Assembly: GCA_018304045.1 (NCBI GenBank)
Contig: JAGVWZ010000016.1
Location: forward strand, 18,063-82,062
DNA: 64,000 bases
Reading direction: 5' to 3'
Origin: Candidatus Pacearchaeota archaeon
Lineage (GTDB): Archaea; Nanobdellota; Nanobdellia; Pacearchaeales; GW2011-AR1
The notes beneath the pieces are model-generated. The model did not search any database. It saw only the letters and a list, made by a program, of their open reading frames with translations, and was not told the origin of the DNA. The stretch's first letter is position 1. Each line of letters starts with the position of its first letter. The position numbers were made by a program, and so were the translations under genes. This document shows positions 341 through 42,364 of this stretch, piece after piece.

Positions 341-2881
341 TCAGCATCTAGTATAGGTGCATTTAGAACACTTTTCACAACCTTCTTCACGAATCATTGG
401 ACTCTGGCAACTAGGACATAAGTTTGAACTTTTTCTTATTCTTGCTTTAGGAGATTCTTCACTATTTCCATTTGTATGGTTTCCATTATATCCTGCATTA
501 TATGGAGGCCCTTTTTCCAATGCTGTTCTTATAGCTTTTGCAAATGCATCGGGAAGTGATTTTACTTTATTTTCTCCAATTCCAGTTTGATTTTCTCCGC
601 CAATATCTTCTAATTGTTCAACTATTAATCTAGGATCAACACCAGCTTTTATTGCAAGAGACATTAATCTTCCACCCATTTCAGCTAAAGCAGGCAAATC
701 TCCTCCTGCTTTTCCAACAGCAACAAAACTTTCATATGGATGTGGAGCTTGTCCATCTTCAAAAGCCCAATTAAATGTTACAAATGCAGTATGGCCATAA
801 GGAGTTTTAACAGCAACAGTCCTTCCAAAAACATCTCCAGGTCTTGGTTTTTTTAATTCAGACCTAACCAATTGTTCAAGTTCCCCCCTCATATTCCTAT
901 TTGTCTTTCCATCAGATCTTGCTTCAGTATCTAATACCTGTGTTTCTAAACTTCCATCAACATAAACAGTTATTCCTTTACAACCTTTTTTATGCGCAAG
1001 AACATAAGCATCAAGAATATTTTCAACAGTTGCACCTGAACTAAAATTAATTGTTTTACTTATTGCATTATCAACATTTCTTTGGAATACTGCCTGCATT
1101 TCTATATGATGTTTATAATCTATATCCATTGAAGTCTTGAAAACATCCTGTATTTCCTTAGGAATTTCTTTAATACCCTGACAACTTCCTTTATTAGCCC
1201 TGACTTTTTCAATTATTTTATCGACATCAAGACCAGCTTCTTTTATTGCTTCAACAAAAGGAGGAACAATTACTTCAACACTATCTCCACCCCTCATTTC
1301 TTTATAGTATGTTAATGCATAATAAGGTTCAATTCCAGAATTTACACCAGCAACCATTGCAATAGAACCAGTAGGAGCAATTGTTGTTCTTGCAAGATTT
1401 CTAACTCTTTCATTAGGATTTTCTTTATCATAATCACTTTGATCAAATGCAGGAAAAACCCCTTTTTCAACACCAAGTTTAACAGATTCTTCTTTAGCAA
1501 CTTTGTTTATAACACCCATTACTCTATCAGCAAGTTCATATGCTTCAGGACTATCATAACCTATTTTCATTTTCATCAACATATCAGCCCACCCCATTAC
1601 ACCTAATCCAATTCTTCTATGTCTTCTAATTGTTTGTTCAATTTTTGGAATAGGTCCTTCATTTAAATCATTGACATTATCCATAAACCTTACAGCATGT
1701 CTTACTGTTTGTTCCAATCTAGAAAAATCAACTCCTTTATTGCTAACCATATTCGAAAGATTAACACTTCCAAGATTACATGCATCATAGGGATGAAGAG
1801 GTTGTTCACCACAAGGATTTGTAGCATCAAGTAAACCATCTGCCCTCAATAAATTATCTCTTTCAATTGTATCTAAAAATATTATTCCAGGATCCCCTCT
1901 TTTATGAGCATAGGCTGCAATTAAACCTAAAACTTTTTTTGTATCTATCTTAACAATGCCATGTTCATCAACTCTTCCAACAACTTCTTGTTTAGTTAAC
2001 ACATCTTGACCTTTTTCACCACTATATTGAATCATTCCAAGTTCATCAAGTACAGGATAACAATTAACAACATCTTGTCCTCTGATTAACAATGAAGCAG
2101 GTATTGGTTTTTTACCAACTTCAGATCCTGCTTTTGCAGTCATTATATTTATTTCTACATTTTCAAGATCTCTTGCAGTAATGTCTCTTCCATCAAATCT
2201 TAATGTATATTCTTCTCCTCTTTCATAGGCTTCCATAAATCTATTGCTCATTCCAACAGAAATATTAAAATTTCTTAAAACTCCATACATATCCTTTGCT
2301 CTTATAAAATCAAAAATATCCGGATGTTCAACATTAAGCACACCCATATTTGCACCTCTCCTATTTCCGGAATTAATTACTTCTGTTTCTTTATCAAATT
2401 GCCCTGCAAATGATATAGGGCCTGATGCAACACCTTTTTTTACTTTAAATCCACGAGGTCTTAATCTAGAAAAATTATAACCAGTTCCACCACCATTTTT
2501 ATGAACAAGTGCAGCTTCAGCAACAGCTTGATATATTTGTCCAAGATCATCTGGAACAGGCAATACATAACAATTAGCAAGAGCTTTTACTTCTGTTCCC
2601 AAATTTGCCAGAACTCTTCCTCCAGGAAGAAAATCTAGGGAAGACATCATTTCATAAAATTTTTTAGCATAACTTTCAACCTGTTTGGCATCAGCACCAT
2701 ATTTTACTTCAGCTCTTGCAGCTTCTGAAGAAATAGTGTATAATCTTTCTGCAGGAGTTTGAACTCTACCACTGTCAGTTGTAAGATATTTTTTTTCCAT
2801 AATACCTACTCCTGATTCTCCAAGCCTATCCTCAAGCATGTTTGGATTTACATAATCTGGCATTTGTAGTGTTGTAGTCAT
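341..2881 (-). CDS. nrdJ: ribonucleotide reductase, class II (adenosylcobalamin-dependent), with C-terminal Cys4 zinc ribbon
   Basis: 859-aa ORF with RNR-like conserved blocks (VLPVPDDLGQI, NPCGEQPLHPYDACNLGS, GIGLGVMGWADML) and a C-terminal CPSCQSP...CEKCSKC zinc ribbon. The ORF track starts at a GTG (2920); the ATG at 2881 (MTTTLQ...) is preceded by a GGAGAT Shine-Dalgarno-like sequence and is the more likely start. Confidence 0.9.
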   Translation of the reverse strand: MTTTLQMPDYVNPNMLEDRLGESGVGIMEKKYLTTDSGRVQTPAERLYTISSEAARAEVKYGADAKQVESYAKKFYEMMSSLDFLPGGRVLANLGTEVKALANCYVLPVPDDLGQIYQAVAEAALVHKNGGGTGYNFSRLRPRGFKVKKGVASGPISFAGQFDKETEVINSGNRRGANMGVLNVEHPDIFDFIRAKDMYGVLRNFNISVGMSNRFMEAYERGEEYTLRFDGRDITARDLENVEINIMTAKAGSEVGKKPIPASLLIRGQDVVNCYPVLDELGMIQYSGEKGQDVLTKQEVVGRVDEHGIVKIDTKKVLGLIAAYAHKRGDPGIIFLDTIERDNLLRADGLLDATNPCGEQPLHPYDACNLGSVNLSNMVSNKGVDFSRLEQTVRHAVRFMDNVNDLNEGPIPKIEQTIRRHRRIGLGVMGWADMLMKMKIGYDSPEAYELADRVMGVINKVAKEESVKLGVEKGVFPAFDQSDYDKENPNERVRNLARTTIAPTGSIAMVAGVNSGIEPYYALTYYKEMRGGDSVEVIVPPFVEAIKEAGLDVDKIIEKVRANKGSCQGIKEIPKEIQDVFKTSMDIDYKHHIEMQAVFQRNVDNAISKTINFSSGATVENILDAYVLAHKKGCKGITVYVDGSLETQVLDTEARSDGKTNRNMRGELEQLVRSELKKPRPGDVFGRTVAVKTPYGHTAFVTFNWAFEDGQAPHPYESFVAVGKAGGDLPALAEMGGRLMSLAIKAGVDPRLIVEQLEDIGGENQTGIGENKVKSLPDAFAKAIRTALEKGPPYNAGYNGNHTNGNSEESPKARIRKSSNLCPSCQSPMIREEGCEKCSKCTYTRC

Positions 2882-2918
2882 TTTATCTCCTTTTTTGTTT
2901 ATGTCAGGAATTAAAACC

Positions 2919-2934
2919 ACATTCTTTAGAATGT
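2919..2934. promoter_or_regulatory. NrdR-box-like 16-bp palindrome (acattctttagaatgt) in the nrdJ leader
   Basis: Perfect inverted repeat ACATTCT-TT-AGAATGT lying between nrdR and nrdJ; it matches the ACA...TGT palindrome class bound by NrdR in bacteria. Confidence 0.45.
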
Positions 2935-2995
2935 GGTAGTAATTTAACAGGTTTTAATTCCTGAACATCCTAAAAACAAGTGCCTGTCGCAAACC

Positions 2996-3011
2996 ACACA
3001 CTAAAGTGTGT
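2996..3011. promoter_or_regulatory. NrdR-box-like 16-bp palindrome (acacactaaagtgtgt) in the nrdJ leader
   Basis: ACAC-N8-GTGT palindrome agreeing at most positions with the bacterial NrdR-box consensus acaCwAtATaTwGtgt; second box ~77 bp from the first. Confidence 0.5.
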
Positions 3012-3142
3012 TGTGGCATATTGTTTTTTTGATTTTATGTTTACTATTTTTTTAATCAACCTCTTTCATTGCTTTCTTGAAAACTTCAAATCGTTAGATT
3101 TGAATGTTGCCAAAAATTTAAAAATTTTTTAGCATTAAGATT

Positions 3143-3577
3143 TTAATCAACTTCCTTCATTGCTTTTTTAAAATCTTTTAAATCATTAAAGTTCATATAG
3201 ACACTTGCAAACCTTATGAATGCAACATCATCTAATTTTTTTAATTTGTTCATCACCATTCTTCCTATTATTTCAGTTTTTACTTCTTTTCCCTTCTTCT
3301 TTAAATTTTCTTCAATTTCTTCAACTATCTCATCTATTTTTTCAATAGACACTGGCCTTTTTTCACAAGCTCTTATTATACCATTTTTTATTTTCTCTTT
3401 GGAAAAAGCTTCTCTTCTTCCATCTTTTTTTACAACAATAATATTTCCCTGTTCTGCTTTTTCATAGGTTGTAAATCTTTTTTTGCATTTTAGACACTCT
3501 CTTCTCCTTCTCGTACCATCAGGAGACTCACGTTTATCAGTGACATGAGTTTCTAGACCACAAAATATACATTTCAT
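3143..3577 (-). CDS. nrdR: transcriptional repressor NrdR (zinc ribbon + ATP-cone)
   Basis: N-terminal CxxC...CxxC zinc ribbon (MKCIFCGLETHV...CLKCKKRFTTYE) followed by an ATP-cone-like region (VVKKDGRREAFSKEKI...); located directly upstream of nrdJ on the same strand. Confidence 0.85.
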   Translation of the reverse strand: MKCIFCGLETHVTDKRESPDGTRRRRECLKCKKRFTTYEKAEQGNIIVVKKDGRREAFSKEKIKNGIIRACEKRPVSIEKIDEIVEEIEENLKKKGKEVKTEIIGRMVMNKLKKLDDVAFIRFASVYMNFNDLKDFKKAMKEVD

Positions 3578-13861: not shown

Positions 13862-13871
13862 CGCCCGCGCC
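13862..13871. repeat. att-like copy of the tRNA-Asp 3' end (cgcccgcgcc)
   Basis: Same core as 12705, 15795 and the tRNA itself; followed by the conserved cassette-end motif caaaaggacttttagtaaat. Confidence 0.6.
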
Positions 13872-13960
13872 GAACAAAAGGACTTTTAGTAAATATTAAT
13901 AAAATTGGAAAGAACTTTTGTGAATAGAACTCTGGATAAAAGTGTCTCAGTTAGAAGAAA

Positions 13961-16750: not shown

Positions 16751-16890
16751 GGCTCTGTCCGGAATAAATTAATCTAGTCTTATATTGAATAATAAATCTC
16801 TTCATTTTTCTTTCACGCCCTCAATTATTAGGGGCGCGTAAATAAAAATAAGTTTAATTCTAATAAGTATAAAGAACTCCGGACAAAGCC
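16751..16890. mobile_element. MITE-like element, copy 1 (~140 bp, 12-bp perfect TIR GCTCTGTCCGGA, internal hairpin)
   Basis: Terminal inverted repeats ggctctgtccgga ... tccggacaaagcc; flanked by a direct repeat ccaaaatta (possible target-site duplication); second copy at 25043..25192. Confidence 0.55.
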
Positions 16891-17666: not shown

Positions 17667-18659
17667 ATGAACAACAATGATGAAACAGGGGGAGTACTTC
17701 AGAGTATATTATACTTTTTTATACTAATTTTATTATTAGTTCTACTAAGTGTATCTATTTATGCAGGATATATTATATATAGGGATTTGCCAAGAGAACC
17801 AGAAAATTTAAATGTAGTATTAAATCCTGAGGCCAATGATTCTACAAATTATGATTCTGATGTTAATCAGTTTAATAAAAACATGAAGTTTAATCATAAT
17901 AATATTTCCTATAGATTTTTTGATTGCAACTATGAGCAAGAAATAAGAGTGTTAAATGCATTTGAAATTCTGTCCAATGAAACAGGATTAATAACCTTTG
18001 TTAAATCATTAGGATTTCCAGACATTGAAATTTTATGTTCTGAAACTAGCAAGCAGACACAAGAACTAGGATCAGAGTATTTTATAGCAGGAGAAGGAGG
18101 AGCAAAAGAAATAATTCAAACAATCAAGTATAATATTATAACCTCTGGTTCTATATTGCTCTATGATTCTCCAACAGGTTCTTTAAAATGTAATTCTCCT
18201 GAAATAGAATTACATGAATTACTTCATGTCTTTGGTTTTGACCATTCTTCAAATAAGAATAGTTTAATGAACCCCTATCTAAGTTCCTGTAAGCAAAAGA
18301 TTGATGTTTCAATAATCAATGAATTAAAAAGATTGTATGCAGAAACAAATCTTCCAGACTTGTATTTTGAAACTTTTTCCCAACCAATTAAAAAAGGAAG
18401 ATATTTGGATTTGAATTTTACAATAAAAAATTCAGGAACAGTAGATGCAGAAAATGCAAGTTTTTCAATCATTGAAGAAGGAAAAATTTTAGAGACCCAT
18501 AGCCTAGCAGATATAAATTTTGGGGCAGGAGTATTAATGAAAATGGAAAATATAAAATTAAGAAGTTCAGACCCAAAACAAATTTCAATAATAATTGATT
18601 ACAATCAGAATATACCAGAACTAGATAAAGAGAATAATATAGCGGAGATAACTTTCTAA
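17667..18659 (+). CDS. membrane-anchored metzincin-type zinc metalloprotease with C-terminal CARDB-like domain
   Basis: HELLHVFGFDHS (HExxHxxGxxH) plus a downstream Met-turn candidate (SLMNP); N-terminal TM helix; C-terminal region resembles CARDB adhesion domain. Confidence 0.65.
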   Translation: MNNNDETGGVLQSILYFFILILLLVLLSVSIYAGYIIYRDLPREPENLNVVLNPEANDSTNYDSDVNQFNKNMKFNHNNISYRFFDCNYEQEIRVLNAFEILSNETGLITFVKSLGFPDIEILCSETSKQTQELGSEYFIAGEGGAKEIIQTIKYNIITSGSILLYDSPTGSLKCNSPEIELHELLHVFGFDHSSNKNSLMNPYLSSCKQKIDVSIINELKRLYAETNLPDLYFETFSQPIKKGRYLDLNFTIKNSGTVDAENASFSIIEEGKILETHSLADINFGAGVLMKMENIKLRSSDPKQISIIIDYNQNIPELDKENNIAEITF

Positions 18660-18700: not shown

Positions 18701-18925
18701 ATGTCAGAAATTAAACCACATCTTTTAAGATGTGGATGTTTACTTGTTTTAATTTCTGAGCCATCAAAATATTTTAAATATTTTGTGGCGCCTAAAACTT
18801 CTGAAAGTTTTAGTGCGCATCCTAAAAACAAGTGCCTGTCACAAACCACACATGTCAGAAATCTTTTATGGATTTCTGAGCACTATTGAGAATTAAAAAT
18901 TCTCAAAGCTTTAGTGTGTTAAGTA
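18701..18925. ncRNA. copy B of the nrdJ-leader element family (orphan copy between convergent genes)
   Basis: atgtcagaaattaaaccacatcttttaagatgtgg...gttttaatttctga ... cctaaaaacaagtgcctgtcacaaaccacaca aligns with 2901..3016; outer stem shows compensatory changes (ggaattaaaac/gttttaattcc versus agaaattaaac/gttttaatttct); extra 9-bp perfect hairpin ctaaaacttctgaaagttttag. Confidence 0.4.
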
Positions 18926-18986: not shown

Positions 18987-19112
18987 CTAGTCAGGAGAAA
19001 TTTCTTCTTCCTCTTCATCATCTTCAGATTCATCATCTAAATCTTCATCAAATTCTTCATCGTCTAGATCTTCATCATCAGATTCTTCAATTTCTTCTTT
19101 TTCTTCTATCAT
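18987..19112 (-). CDS. 41-aa hyper-acidic mini-protein (MIEEKEEIEESDDEDLDDEEFDEDLDDESEDDEEEEEISPD)
   Basis: Clean ATG to stop ORF below the ORF-track cutoff; ~75% Asp/Glu. Confidence 0.3.
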   Translation of the reverse strand: MIEEKEEIEESDDEDLDDEEFDEDLDDESEDDEEEEEISPD

Positions 19113-25042: not shown

Positions 25043-25192
25043 TGCTCTGTCCGGAATTAAATCTCCTAACTTCGAATATTCTAAAAAATCACTTATTTTT
25101 CTTTATCCCCCTCATTAATTAGGGGGGAGTAAATAAAAATAAGACAATAATAGATTAACTTTTATTAAAAATAAAGGACTCCGGACAGAGCA
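25043..25192. mobile_element. MITE-like element, copy 2
   Basis: TIR tgctctgtccgga ... tccggacagagca (perfect 13 bp); internal hairpin tccccctcattaattaggggggag corresponds to cgccctcaattattaggggcg in copy 1 (compensatory G:C to C:G swaps); conserved core ttttctttNNcNccctcaattattaggggNgNgtaaataaaaataag. Confidence 0.55.
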
Positions 25193-38756: not shown

Positions 38757-38882
38757 GCGCCGCTAGTTTAGTGGTAGAACATATCGTTGCCAATAAAGAA
38801 ATTAGATTAATTTCTAATTTTTCCTTTCATAAGGAAAGAAAGCAAAAACGATAGGATCCGAGTCCGATTCTCGGGTGGCGCA
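38757..38882 (+). tRNA. tRNA-Gly (anticodon GCC) with ~55-nt intron after position 37
   Basis: Exon 1 GCGCCGC-TA-GTTT-AGTGGTA-GAAC-A-TATCG-TTGCCA; intron aataaagaaatt...gcaaaaa (approximately 38793..38847); exon 2 (A)CGATA-GGAT-CCGAG-TCCGATT-CTCGG-GTGGCGC-A; acceptor 7 bp with one G:U. Confidence 0.7.
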
Positions 38883-39007
38883 TTCATATTTGCAAGGCAA
38901 ATATGTCATCCGGGATGTCGTAAAGAATTCAAACAGTGATAAGGTCTGATTCCGAGCAAAAGGACTTTTAGTAAATTTGATAGAATAAGAAAGCACTTTT
39001 GCGAGTA

Positions 39008-39018
39008 GGGTGGCACAT
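39008..39018. repeat. att-like copy of the tRNA-Gly 3' end (gggtggcacat)
   Basis: tRNA ends cgggtggcgca; the copy is preceded by the conserved cassette-end motif. Confidence 0.55.
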
Positions 39019-39081
39019 TTTATTATTTTCTAGTAGTAACAAAATAGGAAGATTTAAAAATGTTAAAGAATAGTTAATTTT

Positions 39082-42188: not shown

Positions 42189-42304
42189 ACTAAATTCCTT
42201 ATAGTAAAACAATAAAATTTTGTGCAAACTGAACTTTTTTCTTGTTTACGAGCAAAAGGACTTTTAGCAAATTCGATGAAATAAGAAAGCACTTTTGCGA
42301 GTAG

Positions 42305-42315
42305 GGTGGCGCATG
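42305..42315. repeat. att-like copy of the tRNA-Gly 3' end (gggtggcgcat)
   Basis: Preceded by the conserved cassette-end motif (42253..42304). Confidence 0.55.
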
Positions 42316-42364
42316 TTTTACTGAACATTATATAGTCCTTAAACTAAAATGTGGTAGCCGAGAA

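Follow-up and report, generated by a model that had tools for sequence, protein, structure and literature searches.

Introduction

PATEs are non-autonomous derivatives of insertion sequences (ISs) of the IS200/IS605 family and come from haloarchaea and cyanobacteria, and the REP/BIME elements of bacteria go together with RAYT (TnpA-REP) transposases. REP loops are themselves insertion sites of IS1397 and ISKpn1. Other modular hairpin repeats are pneumococcal BOX, the Correia elements of Neisseria and enterobacterial ERIC; the last two end in inverted repeats, and Correia elements have a TA duplication as well. Genomes of Pacearchaeota and Woesearchaeota, about 1 Mb in size, are usually regarded as streamlined. 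In a MITE census, a Woesearchaea genome was listed as MITE-dense, with nothing more said on it (PMC11602168).

Here we analysed a stretch of 64,000 nt (the window) from a Candidatus Pacearchaeota archaeon and found that two of its loci, A and B, belong to one intergenic repeat family of DPANN archaea, which is dispersed and modular and forms hairpins. The repeat family appears to be undescribed so far: full-text searches with sequence strings or descriptive terms returned no published description, and Rfam held no match. An earlier note on this DNA had hedged among four readings of the two loci, namely a riboswitch or 5′-UTR regulator of nrdJ, a family of small RNAs, a protein-binding structured DNA and a mini mobile element; of these, the mini mobile element or structured DNA is what the evidence now favours.

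Results

Two homologous copies in the window

The shared sequence ascribed to loci A and B was confirmed. The window contains the 20-mer CCTAAAAACAAGTGCCTGTC at two positions and no others (2969 and 18821), where shuffled sequences give an expectation of zero, and a block of 35 nt is 97% identical between the loci. The compensatory change quoted for the outer stem was likewise found, with CAGGAATTAAAA/TTTTAATTCCTG in A against CAGAAATTAAA/TTTAATTTCTG in B, and the apical stem proved compensatory as well (CCACATTC/GAATGTGG in A against CCACATCTT/AAGATGTGG in B). Both loci were far more stable than shuffled sequences on folding (z = -6.6 for A, z = -8.1 for B). A (2901-3033) and B (18701-18919) are homologous, their stems differing by compensatory changes, and a CM R1 search of the window returned these two copies and no third. 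Copy A is made up as follows.

2901..3033, + strand: copy A, a nearly complete canonical unit of 133 nt, in antisense orientation to nrdR and nrdJ; 18 nt separate its 5′ end from the nrdJ start codon
2901..2966, + strand: hairpin I, from the consensus fold and covariation
2901-2915 with about 2952-2968: outer stem of hairpin I, ATGT-CAGGAATTAAAA paired with TTTTAATTCCTG-A-ACAT
2916-2937: apical TTTA-loop hairpin of hairpin I, where a perfect 9-bp hairpin was found
2938-2951: variable 3′ bulge of hairpin I
2967..3033, + strand: hairpin II, in which RNAalifold pairs the A-run with the T-run
2967-2984: basal 5′ arm of hairpin II, ATCCTAAAAACAAGTGCC
2985-2992: conserved internal loop of hairpin II, TGTCGCAA
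2993-3014: apical hairpin of hairpin II, ACCACACAC-TAAA-GTGTGTTGT
3015-3033: 3′ arm of hairpin II, GGCAT-A-TTGTTTTTTT-GAT

Pfam identified the flanking genes as nrdJ and nrdR, in agreement with the earlier reading. Copy A scored 142.7 bits with CM R1, covered the full model and could be aligned over its entire length with 13 copies found in other genomes. Its end had been placed at 3016, which was not borne out, as the homologues set the unit at 2901-3033 with a 3′ arm (GGCATATTGTTTTTTTGAT) that pairs back to 2967-2984. Four substitutions in copy A lie at positions that are invariant in the other 13 copies of alignment A2, and two of these weaken stems (C.T at 2995/3012 and G.T at 2980/3019).

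Copy B is built from the same parts with modules added.

18701..18919, + strand: copy B, 3′-truncated and module-expanded, between a peptidase/CARDB gene (17667-18659, + strand) and a small acidic ORF (18987-19112, - strand)
18701..18761, + strand: hairpin I, with outer stem CAGAAATTAAA/TTTAATTTCTG and apical hairpin at 18716-18735
18762..18818, + strand: two extra hairpin modules at the junction of hairpins I and II, predicted from the fold, CATCAAAATATTTTAAATATTTTGTG (about 18762-18787) and GCGCCTAAAACTTCTGAAAGTTTTAGTGCGC (18788-18818)
18819..18852, + strand: 5′ arm and internal loop of hairpin II and 5′ arm of its apical hairpin (ATCCTAAAAACAAGTGCCTGTCACAAACCACACA)
18853..18908, + strand: nested module of two hairpins directly 5′ of the apical loop, predicted from the fold, TGTCAGAAATCTTTTATGGATTTCTGAGCA (18853-18882) and CTATTGAGAATTAAAAATTCTCAAAG (18883-18908)
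18909..18919, + strand: remainder of the apical hairpin of hairpin II, with its loop and 3′ arm (CTTTAGTGTGT), where the element stops, the basal 3′ arm being missing

Hairpin I of copy B gave a CM match of 58.4 bits, and the core 20-mer occupies 18821-18840. Instead of the one extra 9-bp hairpin reported for B, four additional hairpin modules were found: one pair stands between hairpins I and II, and another pair is nested within the apical hairpin of II. B is without the last ~22 nt of the unit, GGTGGCACATTGTTTTTTTGAT. Over 218 nt it is 87% identical to a copy of the same variant at locus L023, which is cut by an IS. The junction pair of B recurs at the same junction in L020 and L029, and a different pair stands there in L008, L014, L023 and L024. 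At the nested site, a similar two-hairpin module was found in L023, L128 and L060, and a second module type in L026, L029 and L021 and also in the right-end (RE) hairpin of an IS200-like IS in L129.

A dispersed intergenic repeat of DPANN archaea

The family comprises more than 140 copies in DPANN archaeal MAGs and metagenome contigs, with hosts labelled Pacearchaeota, Woesearchaeota and Nanoarchaeota. Many of the loci come from the Hainich groundwater samples H43/H51, and the window's own population is present in the groundwater metagenome PRJNA292723. An 18-mer core retrieved 24 true copies from 12 species-level DPANN MAGs, after 9 remaining matches had been left out as bare chance matches; the copies were spread over as many as 6 contigs of one MAG and frequently stood at a contig end. 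A 19-mer from the 3′ arm was found in more than 119 metagenome stretches among the matches listed, and CM R1 recognised 63 copies on the 80 of these loci that were searched; further, diverged copies lay on the same contigs. No copy was found in IMG/VR, INPHARED phages or PLSDB plasmids.

When the loci were aligned with the window, the element alone aligned and the flanks never did. All copies are intergenic, in either orientation and several per genome, and truncated, internally deleted and nested copies occur. The flanking genes were both co-oriented with the element in 21 cases, both opposed in 22, convergent in 11 and divergent in 9, and the commonest neighbouring gene family accounted for 7 of ~134 loci. 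About 40 nt of the core are identical between species whose flanking DNA no longer aligns, which fits a host-level function as well as recognition by a transposase or horizontal spread. Flank-to-flank BLAST among all loci returned filled/filled pairs only, among them the orthologous pair L147/L167, in which both members keep the element; there was no pair of an empty and a filled allele, so that transposition and the exact ends are putative.

A covarying double hairpin of fixed polarity

The canonical unit of ~130 nt is a double hairpin of fixed polarity, whose bulges never change arms. In hairpin I the sequence varies freely and the shape is retained, and the stem covaries strongly. In hairpin II, a basal stem, wAAAAACAAGTGCC...GGCAC-A-TTGTTTTTTT (A-run against T-run, with a bulged A), encloses a conserved internal loop containing CAAAC and a covarying TTTA-loop hairpin. 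The basal stem is almost invariant across species and its variants compensate, as in L121 (GGGGC/GCCCC) and likewise in L002:154-283 and L031:7352-7541, which are diverged relatives. Where extra two-hairpin modules occur, they are nested in the unit at fixed points.

Among 61 distinct copies, double changes were found in 16 of the 17 pairs of helices 1 and 2 (hairpin I) and in 7 of the 9 pairs of the apical helix of hairpin II. Over the whole alignment, 97% of cells were paired, 30 of 42 pairs showed double changes and the covariation score was 0.337 (slid controls <= 0.066); an alignment by MAFFT only gave the same picture (16/42 pairs, score 0.329). The earlier note was right to read the compensatory change as selection for secondary structure, and the covariation is strong across the aligned copies. 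Mismatches in the stems comprised 28 G.T and 27 A.C, and with the two equally frequent neither strand looks favoured as RNA. The clean covariation of the repeat is a warning that an RNA gene cannot be recognised from compensatory changes only.

Hairpins I and II each have an apical hairpin that reads AAA-CC..-TTTA-..GG on the + strand; the first stands 15 nt in from the 5′ end and the second 20 nt in from the 3′ end, so that the unit has subterminal hairpins near both ends on the same strand. The unit begins with ATGTCAG... and ends with ...GGCACATTGTTTTTTTGAT. It has no terminal inverted repeats: compared with the reverse complement of the 3′ end, ATCAAAAAAACAATG, the 5′ end, ATGTCAGAAATTAAA, shows low-complexity matches only. 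No copy-specific target duplication of 2-5 bp was found in any register among 74 complete copies, the flank identity being that expected from shuffling. The only recurrence in this test was that of the invariant AT...AT termini. The left flank is enriched in T at -5 (74% of copies), -2 (83%) and -1 (65%), giving TnnTT and no sharp tetranucleotide, and the right flank is T-rich too, at +2.

Hairpins resembling the end hairpins of an IS200-like element

A Y1 (HUH) transposase gene was found on two of the contigs that bear the element. One, at L007:3202-3657, matches PF01797 (E = 6e-26) and lies about 1.4 kb from an element copy; the other, in L129, is a frameshifted homologue that ends ~15 nt from a short element copy (~60 nt from the ORF stop), on one side only. 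The transposase gene was thus seen in 2 of ~170 loci, and there is none in the window. These Y1 genes are on short, repeat-length contigs and have many cluster members, as for an IS; roughly 900 TnpA homologues were retrieved.

In about 0.85 Mb we counted 155 hairpins that contain GC and have TTTA or TAAA as their loop, of which 130 belong to canonical copies, about 7 to diverged relatives and 10 to IS200-like ends. The RE hairpin of L129 is colinear with hairpin II of L026, L029 and L021 and shares with it the two-hairpin module nested immediately 5′ of the CCTTTAGG loop. The outermost 12-20 nt are different, the sampled IS200-like ends reading ATAATTGTTTCTAAGAT... and ...GGATGTCATTT against ATGTCAG... 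and ...GGCACATTGTTTTTTTGAT in the element, and CM R1 for the whole element found no match on the IS200-like loci or ends. The outer stems that enclose the apical hairpins are also without counterpart in classical IS200/IS605 ends.

An IS200/IS605-type mechanism is the most likely one, because the TTTA-loop hairpins are like, and in one case colinear with, the IS200-like end hairpins on some of the same contigs. We consider it likely that the repeat is a modular double-hairpin element, non-autonomous and related to IS200/IS605 (PATE- or REP-like), which is mobilised in trans by a Y1 transposase. In this model, the Y1 transposase would act in trans on the repeat folded as single-stranded DNA, binding and cutting its hairpins, and the stem covariation would reflect the need to keep the hairpins rather than an RNA function.

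Other explanations of the repeat

Could the element instead be a multi-copy family of structured sRNA genes, read from the + strand of the unit and ending at the T7 run, with the invariant core of ~40 nt as its functional part? Three strongly covarying helices beside an invariant core would suit such a family, and so would the fixed polarity with bulges always on the same arm; yet the near-equal G.T and A.C counts favour neither strand. Oligo-T is the kind of signal at which archaeal RNA polymerase terminates, and such a run stands at the 3′ end of the unit, but it is itself part of a stem. Upstream there is no conserved promoter signal: among 92 copies, no TATA/BRE element at a fixed distance was seen between -50 and about -6 (<= 0.11 bit), and TATA-like words occurred in 10/92 against 11/92 in a control interval. 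The identity of the core in species with non-aligning flanks also agrees with the sRNA reading, which has against it that truncation, internal deletion, nesting or interruption by an IS affects many copies, that the element is absent from orthologous sites and that Rfam has no match. Taken together, this makes sRNA genes unlikely.

It is distinctly improbable that the element is a module of DNA or RNA retained by the host, such as a bidirectional terminator or insulator or a recombination site, either alongside selfish spread or in its place. Invariant T-runs adjoin hairpin II, T7 on the + strand and T5-6 on the - strand, but stem pairing explains these runs. Many copies lie 0-20 nt from a stop codon, yet convergent gene ends are not enriched (11/63) and gene starts are equally common neighbours. 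The extreme conservation of the core, and the position of copy A at a locus with a replaced reductase gene and a duplicated nrdR 3′ end, speak for host retention; decayed copies, which are common, speak against it.

A conventional MITE mobilised by a DDE transposase, for example by the IS1182-like IS on the same contigs, is very unlikely. The two ends of the repeat are not inverted repeats of each other, a copy-specific target duplication is absent, and the ends of the IS1182-like IS (CAGGCTGTCCCATAATTAG) are unrelated to those of the unit (ATGTCAG... and ...TTTTTTTGAT). The repeat is small, non-coding, intergenic, multi-copy and assembly-breaking, as a MITE would be, and a DDE transposon (DUF772 + DDE_Tnp_1) does co-occur and is physically associated with copies. 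This IS was found in TTTA loops of copies at four loci (L004, L006, L023 and L094, with both ends seen in L094). It sits there with its own TTTA duplication, so the repeat is its target and not its derivative.

Several further candidates were tried and rejected. Rfam scans at gathering and permissive thresholds gave no known RNA family beyond three tRNAs. Inspection by eye for C/D-box, H/ACA and K-turn RNAs found the conserved positions without box motifs or tandem G.A pairs. An ATG opens the unit, yet 1-nt indels between copies shift the frame of any small ORF. For a TnpB omega-RNA or an integron attC site, there was no consistently adjacent protein gene (the largest family at 7/~134 loci) and there were no cassette arrays. 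The two palindromes are not NrdR operator boxes, as they recur at many loci that have nothing to do with nrd genes and their stems are freely variable, with compensation.

Copy A at the nrdR-nrdJ locus

Copy A had been likened to a structured nrdJ leader or riboswitch, a reading that fails on three counts: it has no Rfam match, the element is absent at the sites of relatives, and it occurs in many unrelated contexts. At gathering thresholds Rfam found 3 tRNAs only in the window, and the scan that the note had proposed, cobalamin model included, gave no match on either strand; a permissive scan of 2850-3090 returned sub-threshold chance matches, none of them to RF00174.

The element was absent from the nrdR-reductase site in seven distinct relatives' loci (L044-L049, L176-L179). 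Six of these loci have nrdR either overlapping the reductase gene or 1-51 nt away from it, and in the seventh, L176, just 135 nt upstream of nrdJ are present. Relatives whose NrdR is 84-89% identical have nrdR overlapping, or 1-51 nt from, the reductase gene, without the element; one relative has a copy elsewhere (L049:14428-14558). The window nrdJ is only 29% identical to the reductase adjoining nrdR in L048, so the junction is not a clean empty site, and orthologues of the same nrdJ type were therefore checked; these, at three loci (72%, 59% and 57% identical), had no element upstream.

Next to copy A, on the side of the nrdR stop, lies one further feature.

3040..3142, - strand: spacer separating copy A from the nrdR stop; by pairwise alignment, a degenerate duplicate of the nrdR 3′ end (last ~100 nt)

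Over the last ~33 nt, stop codon included, 28/33 positions are identical to the nrdR end. Judged by its sequence, this spacer is a recombination scar outside the repeat unit. At this locus the reductase gene has been replaced, and the duplicated nrdR 3′ end marks recombination.

That copy A is a cis-regulatory leader, for example a riboswitch, of the adenosylcobalamin-dependent reductase gene nrdJ is extremely unlikely: its strong fold and its position between nrdR and nrdJ, 18 nt from the nrdJ start, would suit one, but cobalamin and other riboswitch models do not match on either strand, the element is missing from seven relatives' loci (three with the same type of nrdJ, six without a spacer able to hold it), and more than 140 copies lie in unrelated contexts. 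Copy A is not a conserved regulator of nrdJ. Its presence here is lineage-specific, and it would have arrived between nrdR and nrdJ in this lineage only. Given the T-runs on both strands and the 18 nt to the nrdJ start, copy A may, as a by-product, alter read-through between nrdR and nrdJ or supply an nrdJ promoter.

Discussion

The repeat has probably spread by means of an IS200-type transposase. The family is abundant in Pacearchaeota and Woesearchaeota, whose genomes usually pass for streamlined; it breaks MAG assemblies, marks sites of gene replacement and is the target of another IS. It offers a concrete substrate for asking whether archaeal Y1 transposases mobilise hairpin repeats in trans. 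A false lead is also removed, as there is no new riboswitch ahead of the B12-dependent ribonucleotide reductase here.

A bolder and rather doubtful extension would make the repeat an archaeal counterpart of the REP/BIME-RAYT system, with double hairpins derived from IS200 ends as the dominant repeat of small DPANN genomes, a core used by the host and loops that serve as an IS landing pad. If true, use by the host would keep the core almost invariant; the repeat could, for instance, act as a bidirectional terminator that is portable, or provide recombination sites for swapping cassettes such as the reductase gene beside nrdR.

Among known systems, the cobalamin riboswitch (RF00174) resembles the repeat only in the place of copy A upstream of a B12-dependent reductase gene; the repeat has no match to that model, is not conserved upstream of orthologues and is multi-copy in unrelated contexts. 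BOX, Correia and ERIC elements are likewise strings of stable hairpins with few module types and variable module number, intergenic and with possible side effects on transcription. Hairpin-forming repetitive elements of sponge mitochondria, in the part of their description considered here, are also strings of stable hairpins made from few module types (PMC2800124). All of these have other hosts and no sequence similarity to the repeat, which, unlike Correia elements and ERIC, is also without inverted-repeat ends and without a duplication.

With REP/BIME elements the repeat shares dispersed extragenic palindromes with covarying stems, an often mosaic or modular make-up, a probable relation to IS200/IS605 end hairpins and the role of specific target of other ISs. 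It differs in having no GTAG-type 5′ tetranucleotide (none in the alignments), a unit of about 130 nt against 20-40 nt, an archaeal host, and an associated Y1 gene that resembles a multi-copy IS and not a single-copy RAYT flanked by REPs. From PATEs it differs in terminal sequences unlike the sampled IS ends, in apical hairpins set inside long outer stems, in a hairpin II basal stem that is invariant across species and in two-hairpin modules nested in the unit. Like PATEs, it is short, non-coding, multi-copy and intergenic, has subterminal hairpins on one strand with neither terminal inverted repeats nor target duplication, and has a T-rich left flank that may reflect a sequence preference; and on two element-bearing contigs there is a Y1 transposase gene of an IS whose end hairpins its own hairpins resemble.

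Results

Two copies of a structured repeat

Loci A and B share a 35-nt block with 97% identity, and a search of the 64 kb for the 20-mer CCTAAAAACAAGTGCCTGTC gave exactly two matches, compared with no occurrence in 100 shuffles. Folding is far more stable at both loci than in shuffled sequence, and the compensatory stem differences between them quoted in the earlier note are present. A covariance-model search of the window found these two copies only. The duplicated structured element described from sequence alone is real, but its coordinates, and the description of B, required correction: in place of one extra 9-bp hairpin, B carries two junction modules and two nested modules, and its 3' end is missing. 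Locus A lies between the nrdJ-type reductase gene and nrdR.

Features at loci A and B (window coordinates)
341-2881, minus strand: class II ribonucleotide reductase gene (nrdJ), 846 aa; Pfam Ribonuc_red_lgC, E = 3e-123, and TSCPD domain
2901-3033: copy A, canonical unit
3143-3577, minus strand: nrdR; Pfam Zn_ribbon_NrdR and ATP-cone
17667-18659, plus strand: peptidase/CARDB gene, precedes locus B
18701-18761: copy B, hairpin I
18762-18818: copy B, two junction modules
18819-18852: copy B, 5' half of hairpin II
18853-18908: copy B, two nested modules
18909-18919: copy B, apical loop and 3' arm of hairpin II

Copy B, a modular variant of the family, stops after 18919 and lacks the final ~22 nt of the unit. 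Copy A has four substitutions at sites invariant in the other 13 copies of its alignment, all from other genomes; two of them weaken stems.

The canonical unit is a covarying double hairpin

The canonical unit is ~130 nt long and consists of two hairpins.

Parts of the canonical unit, in order
Hairpin I: ATGT-CAGAAATTAAA; apical hairpin CCACnnnn-TTTA-nnnnGTGG; variable 11-15-nt bulge; TTTAATTTCTG-A-GCAT
Hairpin II, basal 5' arm: ATCC-wAAAAACAA-GTGCC
Hairpin II, internal loop: TGTCACAA, or AATCAA and similar; with the next stem it always ends CAAAC
Hairpin II, apical hairpin: loop TTTA or TAAA
Hairpin II, 3' arm: GGCAC-A-TTGTTTTTTT-GAT

The 3' T-run of hairpin II is thus paired with its A-run. 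In every case the single bulge lies on the 3' arm, which gives the unit polarity. In a MAFFT alignment, 97.6% of cells were paired and double changes occurred in 16 of 42 pairs, with a covariation score of 0.329 against at most 0.092 when partners were slid. In a second alignment, of 61 distinct metagenome copies fitted to the covariance model, double changes occurred in 30/42 pairs (score 0.337 versus ≤0.066). Quite different paired sequences can substitute in the hairpin I outer stem, for example CGAAGTGTTTG.../...AACACTTCG. The hairpin II basal stem is nearly invariant; its rare variants compensate (GGGGC/GCCCC in locus L121), also in diverged relatives (L002:154-283, L031:7352-7541). Loops flip between TTTA and TAAA among copies. 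The family is modular, as pairs of small hairpins are inserted at the hairpin I/II junction or just 5' of the hairpin II apical loop, and minimal forms exist without one apical hairpin.

The repeat is dispersed among DPANN archaea

Scanning a species-representative genome collection with an 18-mer core gave 33 loci, 24 with the whole element and 9 that were bare 18-mer coincidences. All 24 lay in MAGs labelled Pacearchaeota, Woesearchaeota or Nanoarchaeota (12 different MAGs, each with up to six element-bearing contigs), and contig ends were a frequent position. A metagenome scan with a 3'-arm 19-mer yielded at least 119 stretches; the covariance model, built from 14 copies, identified 63 copies on the 80 of these loci searched and further diverged copies on genome loci. 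BLASTN of all loci against the window aligned the element and never its flanks, and no copy was present in IMG/VR, a phage collection or a plasmid collection. The window NrdR is 100% identical to a protein named by NCBI from Candidatus Pacearchaeota. These results indicate that A and B belong to a dispersed family whose host is a DPANN archaeon. The element is very probably a dispersed repeat of hairpins, as opposed to a locus-specific regulator or RNA gene at nrdJ-nrdR.

Several features of the copies argue against a family of expressed small RNA genes. The orientation of the repeat relative to neighbouring genes is random (21 with both neighbours co-oriented, 22 both opposed, 11 convergent, 9 divergent). 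Upstream of 92 independent 5' ends, no positional signal appeared between -50 and -7, and TATA-like words were not enriched (10/92 versus 11/92 in a control interval). Stem mismatches comprised 28 G.T and 27 A.C, an equality expected of unselected transitions and not of mismatches tolerated by an RNA read from one strand. Truncated, internally deleted, nested and IS-cut copies were common. For a dispersed repeat, covariation would be best explained by a need to keep the hairpins in propagating copies, with a possible contribution from intrastrand correction.

The earlier proposal that A is a riboswitch or 5'-UTR regulator of nrdJ was rejected: an Rfam scan including the cobalamin riboswitch model matched no riboswitch on either strand, and the element is absent from the corresponding junctions of relatives. 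Contigs of the same population always carry it, three of them breaking inside it. Among the closest relatives, whose NrdR is 84-89% identical, the reductase gene either overlaps nrdR or is separated from it by 1-51 nt, and the model detects no element there. Identity between the window nrdJ and the reductase beside nrdR in L048, the one relative compared, is just 29%, and orthologues of the window's nrdJ type were therefore also examined. In two of these, 59% and 57% identical and sharing the DUF5652-nrdR-nrdJ synteny, nrdR and nrdJ overlap or abut; in a third, 72% identical, the 135 nt upstream of nrdJ contain no element. A copy does occur at another position in one relative, following nrdG (L049:14428-14558).

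Rearrangement at the nrdR-nrdJ locus

Between the nrdR stop and copy A, the spacer (3040-3142) is a degenerate duplication of ~100 nt from the 3' end of nrdR: 28 of the final 33 nt are identical, stop codon included, and recombination has therefore rearranged the locus. Taken with the non-orthologous nrdJ, the duplication suggests recombinational replacement of the reductase gene that follows nrdR. Among close relatives (L044-L049 and L177-L179 versus window 341-3577), the gene after nrdR varies between two unrelated nrdJ types and nrdD with nrdG, synteny being otherwise conserved, and the site behaves like a swap site. In two of these lineages, the window and L049, a repeat copy lies at the edge of the reductase block.

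On the nrdR/nrdJ strand, copy A reads hairpin II, TTGTTTTTAGG, hairpin I. Hairpin I stops 18 nt short of the nrdJ start, and this start has a GGAG Shine-Dalgarno-like motif. From this layout, copy A could reduce read-through from nrdR, and the nrdJ promoter would need to be inside the copy. Elsewhere in the family, many copies are ≤45 nt from a start codon or ≤20 nt from a stop codon.

Possible link to IS200-like Y1 transposases

The ends of the unit have no inverted-repeat relation, 74 complete copies showed no copy-specific 2-5 bp duplication in any register, and the sole flank signal was T at -5, -2 and -1. Together, these features characterise IS200/IS605-type elements, as opposed to DDE-type MITEs. 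An IS200 TnpA probe matched a 151-aa ORF in L007 (Pfam Y1_Tnp, E = 6e-26), ~1.4 kb from an element copy. In L129, a frameshifted Y1 homologue adjoins a short copy, ~15 nt from the IS right end (RE) and ~60 nt from the ORF stop. Homologues of the L007 protein were mostly on 0.5-2 kb contigs with many cluster members, as for a multi-copy IS.

At both IS ends, which were defined from five further distinct loci, lie 8-bp hairpins whose loop is TTTA. The RE hairpin is AAA-CCTACACC-TTTA-GGTGTAGG-AGGATGTCATTT, and the repeat's hairpin II apex is AAA-CCACACC-TTTTA-AGGTGTGG-TGGCACATTG. Hairpins of this type are otherwise rare: 155 occur in ~0.85 Mb, of which 130 lie in canonical copies, ~7 in diverged relatives, 10 at the IS200-like ends and ~8 elsewhere. 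Most tellingly, the L129 RE hairpin contains a nested two-hairpin module whose position and layout match the hairpin II module of L026, L029 and L021; the sequences are colinear over ~60 nt.

In two IS200-like ISs of DPANN archaea (L129:1000-1670, L007:3055-3690), the tnpA stop codon lies inside the RE hairpin loop (CCTTTAGG). The left-end hairpin of the L129 IS, whose tnpA is frameshifted, is enclosed by an outer stem, as the hairpins of the repeat are.

Against IS membership, sampled IS copies and the repeat differ over their terminal 12-20 nt, a search of the IS loci with the whole-element model gave no match, and no empty site was found. Because of these points, mobilisation was rated separately from the nature of the repeat: that a Y1 transposase mobilises it in trans as folded single-stranded DNA is, in our judgement, an even call.

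IS1182-like insertions and other features

An IS1182-like transposon (DUF772 with DDE_Tnp_1/DDE_Tnp_1_6; ends CAGGCTGT(C/G)CCA...) interrupts repeat hairpins at four loci, in each case precisely at the TTTA loop.

IS1182-like insertions
L094:8050-9625
L004, ~1-77
L006:5185-end
L023, from ~1492 down (reverse strand)

At L094, the locus where both ends are seen, TTTA is duplicated. The transposon appears to use repeat hairpin loops as a landing site, among loci chosen for containing the repeat. Reverse-transcriptase genes (RVT_1, E = 3e-21) occur on repeat-bearing contigs at 4 of ~134 loci (L006:718-1782 and three others), none adjacent to the repeat.

Elsewhere in the window, a probable intron-containing tRNA-Gly(GCC) at 38757-38885 (+), recognised by eye only (GCGCCGCTAGTTTAGTGGTAGAACATATCGTTGCCAAT, ~55-nt insert, AACGATAGGATCCGAGTCCGATTCTCGGGTGGCGCA), was missed by Rfam and ARAGORN. 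A second, unrelated intergenic repeat of ~75 nt (CCGAGCAAAAGGACTTTTAG...GCACTTTTGCGAGTAGGGTGGC(A/G)CAT) lies at 38947-39021 and 42243-42317 (89% identical), with a partial copy at 13870-13894; parts of it are complementary to each other, and Rfam has no match to it. A 49-nt repeat at 16804-16852 and 25095-25143 (86% identical) contains a GC-rich hairpin (CGCCCCTCAATTATTAGGGGCG-like) between A/T runs; it may represent a further small repeat family or a terminator-like signal common to both sites.

Discussion

The repeat family is described neither in Rfam nor in searchable literature. It is of moderate relevance to DPANN genome biology and archaeal HUH transposases, and is a useful warning that covariation does not by itself prove an RNA gene. 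Its nearest known counterparts are PATEs, non-autonomous IS200/IS605 derivatives, and the bacterial REP/BIME elements; BOX elements, as modular hairpin repeats, offer a structural analogy. Insertion of the IS1182-like transposon in repeat loops parallels the ISs that target REP loops.
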